This document shows, in pieces, positions 37,723-38,391 of a stretch of DNA of 64,000 bases. This DNA is from a virus (taxonomy: Duplodnaviria; Caudoviricetes). Position 1 is the first letter of the stretch; each line of letters begins with the position of its first letter. Both the position numbers and the translations under genes were made by a program. The notes beneath the pieces are model-generated. The model was given only the letters and a program-made list of their open reading frames with translations. It did no database searches and was not told the origin of the DNA. The stretch is from the IMG/VR virus record IMGVR_UViG_3300045747_000505; one strand, given 5' to 3'.

Positions 37723-38391
37723 ATGAAGTGTATACTTGAAGTGCGCGCCGCGGAAGGCGGCGATGATGCGAAGCTCTTCGCAAAGGATCTTGCTGCGGCC
37801 TACGGTCGCATGTTCAGCCGCTTCGGCTGAAAGCATCGCCTGCTAGATTCTCGTCAAGGCGAGATCTCGTTAGAGGTCAGCGGCGAGGATTTGACAGGCT
37901 TGCGACAAGAGGCTGGTGGTCATCGCATCATGCGGGTTCCACCAACCGAGCGTAAGGGTCGCGTTCACACTTCAACGGTGACGGTCGCCGTGCTCGACGA
38001 GGCGAAGGCCTCCAGCATCGAGTTCAACGACCGTGACTTTCGCGTCGAGTGGTACTCTGGCACCGGTGCTGGCGGACAACACCGCAACAAGCATCAGAAC
38101 TCGTGTCGCATCACGCATCGCTCAGGAGCGGTGGCTACGGCTCAGTGTCGTAGTCGCGAGAACTCTCTGGCCGAGGCGACGATTGCGATACTGGCACGGT
38201 TGAATGGAGCGGAGCAAGCGTCATCAGCGCTGGCACGGTCGCTCGACCGAAAACAACAAACTGGCAGTGGTGAGCGTGGTGATAAAATACGCACCTACCG
38301 CTTTCAAGACAACTCGGTCAAGGACCATCGCACCAACAACAGCGCGGCTCTCGACATTGTCCTCAACGGCAAGTTCGATCTGCTTTGGTAA
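37723..38391 (+). CDS. RF1-like class I peptide chain release factor lacking domain 1, with in-frame TGA at codon 36
   Basis: LEVRAAEGGDDAKLFA, RVPPTERKGRVHTS (PxT), GAGGQHRNK (GGQ), KIRTYRF...DHR. Both halves are in one frame across the TGA at 37828-37830. Confidence 0.88.

Follow-up and report, generated by a model that had tools for sequence, protein, structure and literature searches.

A gene for a short RF1-type release factor, located within the tRNA arrays of 340–520-kb phages, carries an in-frame UGA at codon 36 that is universally conserved in its family and through which the gene must be read. We consider it probable that this codon, UGA36, gates synthesis of the factor by setting UGA readthrough against termination by RF2. 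The copy analysed here lies in a 64,000-nucleotide stretch of phage DNA, which we refer to as the window, and has the following features.

37723..38391, plus strand: whole gene, a 222-codon RF1-type release factor without domain 1, readable only through UGA36
37713..37717, plus strand: Shine-Dalgarno-like GGAGG, 5 nt upstream of the ATG, as read from the sequence
37723..37827, plus strand: codons 1–35, the first strand and helix of RF domain 2, including the invariant A-E-G-G (dN/dS 0.11)
37825..37831, plus strand: local context GGC-TGA-A, with a Gly codon ahead and A at +4 (37831), supported by family counts
37828..37830, plus strand: in-frame TGA, codon 36, at the Trp position of RF1
37831..38388, plus strand: codons 37–222, the remainder of domain 2, domain 3 (GGQ) and domain 4 (dN/dS 0.10; fold)
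37836..37862, plus strand: window-specific 6-bp hairpin, outside any conserved signal
37930..37932, plus strand: Met70, in place of the Gln of cellular RF1 and of 99% of the family (alignment)
37939..37947, plus strand: PPT, the RF1-type PxT decoding tripeptide, residues 73–75 (in the family, P73 100%, P74 100%, T75 97%)
38071..38079, plus strand: GGQ, the peptidyl-tRNA hydrolysis motif, residues 117–119 (100% conserved in the family)
38389..38391, plus strand: true terminator TAA (TAA ends 75 of 80 family genes)

A single frame holds the ATG at 37723, one TGA at 37828–37830 and the TAA at 38389–38391 (223 codons). In the read-through product, Pfam detected PCRF (3.3e-24), matched only over profile positions 101–194 of 194, together with a full-length RF-1 domain (3.6e-17). 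Against the NCBIfam models, the product scored 196 and 190 bits for prfA, 121 for prfB and 38 for prfH, where the cut-offs are 400 and 423 bits for the prfA models and 166.65 for PrfH. None of these scores reaches the cut-off for a full-length protein, since the N-terminal ~105 residues of cellular RF1, corresponding to domain 1, have no counterpart here, and the alignment of the product to RF1 begins at RF1 residue about 105–111. We therefore regard the product as an RF1-type paralogue and not as a canonical prfA product. Sequence comparison with the PDB gave 149 bits for E. coli RF1 versus 86 bits for RF2, and HMMER paired residue 36 with the Trp of ‘...aearrWrve...’ in E. coli RF1. An AlphaFold (AF2) model built from 20 family members (pLDDT 85.4) matched ribosome-bound RF1 of T. 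thermophilus and E. coli with Foldseek TMq values of 0.80–0.87; the corresponding values were 0.52 for free compact RF1, 0.65 for PrfH and, slightly lower than for RF1, 0.82 for the best RF2 chain. An earlier note, made from the letters of the window, had described an RF1-like gene with a TGA at the conserved Trp codon, an A after it, an unchanged frame beyond it, intact PxT and GGQ motifs and no domain 1, and the analysis bears out this description in each respect. A prfB-type +1 frameshift cassette was rejected, as the same frame is used on both sides of the TGA and the context is GGC-TGA-A instead of CUU-UGA-C.

The residues expected to read codons and to release peptides are well preserved. 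Near-invariant in the family are AEGG, GGHR, Gln70, PPT, His82, Thr/Ser83 and GGQHRNKHQNS, and within the upstream half AEGG, D15, F19, L23 and Y27 are each 100% conserved. Given this near-invariance at the decoding and catalytic sites, the product should be an active RF1-type termination factor consisting of domains 2–4 only. The window copy has one peculiarity, Met70, which is the sole case among 75 family sequences, although two database relatives with 82–92% identity share it. The Gln usually found at this position is presumably the third-stop-base-reading Gln181 (Thermus numbering) of the RF1-ribosome structures, and its replacement could narrow or change the stop-codon specificity of the window factor. 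A connection between Met70 and the carriage of a tRNA(CUA) was rejected, since the relative G001 has this tRNA and yet has Gln. Just 5′ of the ribosome-binding site of the gene, at 37674–37707, two exact copies of ATTCAATTGCAACTT lie 19 nt apart, and the repeat occurs nowhere else in the window.

Is the TGA a lesion or a retained element? Two scans of IMG/VR yielded 160 loci representing 99 distinct genes, 51–70% identical to the queries and carried on contigs of up to 524 kb. The homologous codon 36 is an in-frame TGA, and not TGG, in all 99 distinct viral sequences (80 of 80 loci in the first set), and this TGA is the only in-frame stop in each of them. Synonymous sites have reached saturation in a set of 75 distinct coding sequences (median pS 0.77 upstream and 0.80 downstream of the TGA); dN/dS, estimated from 84 unsaturated pairs, is 0.11 for codons 1–35 and 0.10 for codons 37–222. 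The invariant Trp residues W110 and W222 provide an internal control, being encoded by TGG in 75 of 75 sequences; the remaining 156 Trp codons of the family are also all TGG, and there is no second in-frame TGA. TGA36 is thus kept by selection and is not a product of decay. Pseudogene decay of the downstream half, which the earlier note had named as a finding that would count against its reading, is ruled out by a dN/dS of about 0.1 on either side of the TGA, that is, by purifying selection. Sequencing or assembly error is ruled out by the concordance of about 100 independent assemblies and of a second sample: a wetland assembly from a different study (X2) shows zero differences from the window over 37600–38500. 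The phage is present in assemblies of both pond and wetland samples; runs X1–X4 have contigs of 75–130 kb on record, the pieces aligned to the window being shorter than 1.5 kb, and the window sequence was found in no RNA run.

TGA36 homologues also occur in three cultured Alphaproteobacteria, Thalassospira xianhensis, Jiella sp. and Gemmobacter caeni, each of which has canonical RF1, RF2 and ArfB genes. The homologue of Gemmobacter caeni DSM 21823 (L112, 3001–3678) lies in a chromosomal array of 37 tRNAs, in which Trp(CCA) is present and UCA absent; this copy retains TGA36, but its decoding tripeptide is P-L-G instead of PPT. Among GenBank phages, megablast gave no match and tblastn gave only homologues at ≤41% identity.

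Could the gene instead make two polypeptides, namely a 35-residue peptide and a downstream re-initiated product (for example from the TTG at 37891), possibly reassembling? The truncated products of 153–184 residues that gene callers annotate for the homologous gene on long contigs would fit such an arrangement, but the annotated downstream starts vary between genes, and no ATG or GTG overlaps the TGA. Moreover, the frame is retained in 99 of 99 genes, which would not be required of separate products, and a product starting at residue 57 would miss the invariant AEGG helix. Because codons 1–35 are as constrained as the downstream half, a start at TTG 37891, the alternative raised by the earlier note, cannot explain the gene. 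We consider production of two polypeptides very improbable.

Nor does the TGA reflect an altered code. In the window, TGA terminates 34 of the 58 plus-strand ORFs of at least 80 codons, ATGA start/stop overlaps among them; in the flanks of 80 relatives it terminates 161 of 523 long ORFs, with 38 ATGA overlaps; and in the near-complete relatives G003 and G005 it terminates about 40% of long ORFs. Since TGA is a frequent stop in the window and in the relatives, the recoding must be gene-specific and not a matter of code 4. Genome-wide reading of TGA as Trp (table 4) was accordingly rejected, TGA being a common stop with ATGA overlaps and the other Trp codons being TGG. The database nevertheless contains ‘complete’ proteins of 222 residues with W at residue 36, mostly from contigs of 1–2 kb called under code 4; the N-terminus of one of them, P0002, agrees with the code-4 reading of locus L001, whose codon 36 is TGA. 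Such entries would favour reassignment, and selenocysteine was also considered, but no SECIS-like conserved hairpin lies 3′ of the UGA. Taken with the TGA stops, the TGG codons for Trp, the dN/dS of 0.1 and the concordant assemblies, this leaves reassignment, selenocysteine, pseudogene and assembly error together with almost no credibility. For annotation, the consequence is that gene callers either truncate such genes or wrongly place short contigs under code 4. The DNA of the window is GC-rich.

The immediate surroundings of the codon are distinctive. In 70 distinct family sequences, the codon preceding TGA36 is GGC in 57, GGT in 10 and GGA in 3, and the +4 base is A in 51, G in 14, C in 5 and T in none; at genuine TGA stops in these phages, by comparison, +4 is T in 29% and GGN stands ahead in 3%. 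In E. coli, tRNA-Trp misreads UGA especially readily when A comes next, and U at +4 gives the least suppression (PMC5289835). The family context, GGY-UGA-A without U at +4, matches this leaky type. A stimulatory RNA structure is not apparent. RNAalifold found no consensus pairs, and hence no conserved structure, in the 75 nt 3′ of TGA36. The stem TCGCCT/AGGCGA (37836–41/37857–62) to which attention had been drawn earlier is present in the window; its role as a recoding signal is not supported, because 69 homologues show neither conservation nor covariation of it (paired in 65%, versus 64% in shuffles), and the window hairpin is not unusually stable relative to shuffles (z −1.56). The pairing level that it does reach across homologues arises because the stem core encodes conserved Arg-Leu and Gly-Glu. 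Given that no conserved stimulatory structure was found, the efficiency of readthrough may be only a few per cent.

How might such a codon operate? Synthesis of the full-length factor would need the in-frame UGA36 to be decoded as sense, most probably as Trp. Most ribosomes would be stopped at UGA36 by host RF2, releasing a 35-residue peptide, while a fraction would insert an amino acid there and go on in the same frame. The size of this fraction would depend on how RF2 fares against a tRNA that reads UGA, either near-cognate tRNA-Trp(CCA) or, where it is phage-encoded, tRNA(UCA). The gate would thereby hold the factor low, and its level would track how poorly UGA terminates in the infected cell; this would be a trans version of the prfB logic, with RF2 activity controlling an RF1-type factor. 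We infer readthrough itself, the insertion of Trp, the RF2 level as the sensed variable and the use of the factor to the phage. The earlier note had likewise proposed that near-cognate Trp readthrough could sense host RF2 activity, which is one option among several, as the tRNA(UCA) of two of five near-complete relatives could decode the codon cognately. One point weighs against the scheme: the factor looks RF1-specific (UAA/UAG), which gives no evident reason for its level to follow RF2 activity. A possible benefit would be to take load off RF2 when phage messages ending in TGA and TAA swamp the cell; another would be the rescue of ribosomes idling at stop codons, alongside the tmRNA, the tRNAs and the CCA-adding enzyme of the phage.

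The tRNA genes of these phages bear on which decoder might act. The phage carries more than 26 tRNAs, a tmRNA and a CCA-adding enzyme. Within the 64-kb window, which is a part of the phage genome only, there is no tRNA(UCA); there is a tRNA(CUA) with an amber suppressor anticodon (22817–22891), which adjoins a permuted tmRNA (21927–22302) of the beta-proteobacterial type with the tag ANEANFRLAA. TAG terminates only 5 of the 58 plus-strand ORFs of the window. We checked the tRNA regions of five near-complete relatives, G001–G005, covering most of the tRNA hits in G003–G005. Two tRNA(UCA) genes were found in G003 and one in G005, the latter with a Trp-like G73 discriminator and a CUUCAAA loop, in a genome where no tRNA-Trp(CCA) was found. 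G001 and G002 have one tRNA(CUA) each and no UCA, and G004 has two tRNA(CUA) and no UCA among the 44 of 53 tRNA hits scanned. In none of the five do tRNA(CUA) and tRNA(UCA) occur together. Since tRNA(UCA) is found in some relatives and tRNA(CUA) in others, the decoder may differ between phages, and this variation in suppressor tRNAs may count against a uniform logic.

These observations also bear on a reading in which UGA36 is read cognately by a phage tRNA(UCA), so that the factor is made after expression of this tRNA and the codon serves timing and not the sensing of RF2. The genes in G003 and G005, the second in the apparent absence of tRNA-Trp(CCA), speak for it. It is at odds, however, with the three relatives in which tRNA(CUA) but no UCA was found, with the lack of UCA in the Gemmobacter array and in the window, and with the continued use of TGA as a stop in G003 and G005, and we think it unlikely. 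All of these phages have the gate, but only some have a cognate UGA decoder; the one decoder open to every one of them is near-cognate tRNA-Trp, and phage tRNA(UCA) may take over decoding in some relatives. Of the 39 tRNAs nearest to the RF gene, 4 are tRNA-Trp(CCA), as against 14 among 494 flanking tRNAs, counts too low to support an association. Some phage tRNA-Trp sequences have A24 in the D-arm, as in the Hirsh suppressor, a feature to which we attach no weight.

Other tRNA-like genes in these phages are unusual in form. A weak tRNA at 37334–37406 (Rfam 35.8 bits) has an 8-nt anticodon loop, in which ARAGORN reads a four-base anticodon, AGUA, and odd anticodon loops are seen in the relatives L015 (1755–1843, ‘gagt’), G002 (‘caca’) and G001 (‘tt’). 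Rfam matches at 34968–35098 (131 nt) and 38923–39072 (150 nt) represent tRNA genes with long insertions, for which there is no ARAGORN call. Endonuclease-like ORFs are interspersed with the tRNAs over 30203–36000, namely GIY-YIG/NUMOD3 (30203–30808), DUF559 (33451–34089) and SegE-like (35146–35796), and ORFs of ~211–227 residues without a Pfam match lie at 31840–32475, 36332–37015 and 39237–39872; TAG ends three of these endonuclease-like or Pfam-less genes around the window tRNAs. Elsewhere, within 8134–19413, 40303–41118 and 59720–60838, the window encodes auxiliary proteins typical of very large phages (an NMNAT-Nudix fusion, adenylosuccinate synthetase, NAMPT, a papain-like protease and a CCA-adding-type nucleotidyltransferase). 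Large fn3 and cupredoxin-like proteins are encoded at 2559–7313 and 14929–17742.

Relatives in which the gate takes another form are informative. In L111 (3001–3664), from a contig of a Hahella bin, codon 36 is TGG, and six codons later a prfB-like CTT-TAG-C is followed by a shift to the +1 frame; this gene nests among the TGA36 genes of Thalassospira and Jiella with an SH-like support of 0.93, and its frameshift stop, UAG, is an RF1-specific codon. Distant homologues in phages of 630–640 kb, with 33–37% identity and likewise without domain 1, have one or two N-terminal in-frame TGAs at positions not homologous to codon 36. In these genomes, in-frame TGA is otherwise found at about 1 per 1000 codons, and reading TGA as sense raises no coding density, so that they are not TGA-recoded. 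Because the TGAs of the huge phages occupy non-homologous positions, the gate itself seems to be selected, and not the Trp codon; comparison of these sequences suggests that the gate is what is kept. We found no RF2-like partner carrying a reciprocal TAG in frame, each of G001–G005 having a single gene with an RF-1 domain.

Two further readings can be judged against these variants. In one of them, the UGA merely caps the output of a possibly harmful factor, at a few per cent of what its mRNA would allow, and nothing is sensed. Overexpression of a release factor lowers fitness in B. subtilis (PMC12421855), and the lack of a stimulatory structure would suit such a cap. A weak ribosome-binding site would suffice for the purpose, though, and the gene has GGAGG; furthermore, at saturating divergence, TGA is replaced only by a stop-codon-dependent frameshift, an indication that the functional element is the stop codon. 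We regard a simple cap as improbable. In the other reading, the short factor has gained recognition of UGA and, in the manner of RF2, halts its own translation at the in-frame UGA36. The analogy with prfB and the substitution of Met for the third-base-reading Gln in the window copy lend this some appeal, but the family conserves PPT as well as the His and Thr that belong to the decoding site of RF1, the PDB comparison favours RF1 over RF2, and the frameshift variant uses the codon of RF1. Such autoregulation appears to us decidedly improbable.

Returning to a gate in which UGA readthrough competes with RF2, we tentatively extend it, with rather less than even confidence, to the short RF1-type factors of large phages as a class. 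These would be sensors of stop-codon competition, made only when termination at a specific stop fails, through UGA readthrough here and, in sister lineages, through a +1 frameshift at UAG or UGA. In evolution one such device could stand in for another, whereas the gate could not be lost. If this is true, the phage would monitor and rebalance the termination capacity of its host during infection, and the factor could counter the stalling of ribosomes at stops in a phage that has a tmRNA, dozens of tRNAs and a CCA-adding enzyme. The copies in cultured strains of Gemmobacter, Thalassospira and Jiella offer a directly testable system, in which one can ask how local context sets readthrough when no RNA stimulator takes part, whether host termination is sensed or manipulated by phages, and whether a release factor can function without domain 1.

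The control of a termination factor by recoding has one textbook case, RF2. Like the +1 frameshift of prfB, the gene described here has an early in-frame UGA in a release-factor gene (codon 26 in prfB, codon 36 here), and its output would hinge on competition between RF2 and a recoding event. Unlike prfB, it involves no change of frame, no CUU-UGA-C heptamer and no SD-like stimulator, and because the window product is of the RF1 type, UGA is not its own codon. In the coat gene of Q-beta, low-frequency readthrough of UGA yields the A1 protein, and that system, together with other leaky UGA-A sites, resembles the present one in being a phage gene with UGA-A that is decoded at low frequency, probably by tRNA-Trp. 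There, however, readthrough lengthens an already functional protein at its C-terminus, whereas here the stop falls inside a single folded domain and leaves a 35-residue fragment. In more than 12,000 bacterial genomes surveyed, no case of programmed recoding of cellular prfA came to light (PMC12421855, 2025), and our full-text literature search found no description of an in-frame-UGA gate in such a release factor. Stop-recoded phages have code change modules that comprise RF1 or RF2 and suppressor tRNAs, with the RF genes in the standard code (bioRxiv 10.1101/2021.08.26.457843). The phages studied here likewise combine an encoded release factor with suppressor tRNAs, but those modules serve genome-wide reassignment of a stop, whereas here TGA stays a stop and the RF gene itself contains the in-frame TGA. 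Finally, the factor shares with PrfH and ArfB the absence of domain 1 and the presence of the GGQ domain. It differs from PrfH in score (38 bits against a cut-off of 166.65) and in fold (TMq 0.65, as against 0.80–0.87 to RF1), and from both in that the window protein retains the codon-reading motifs of RF1.
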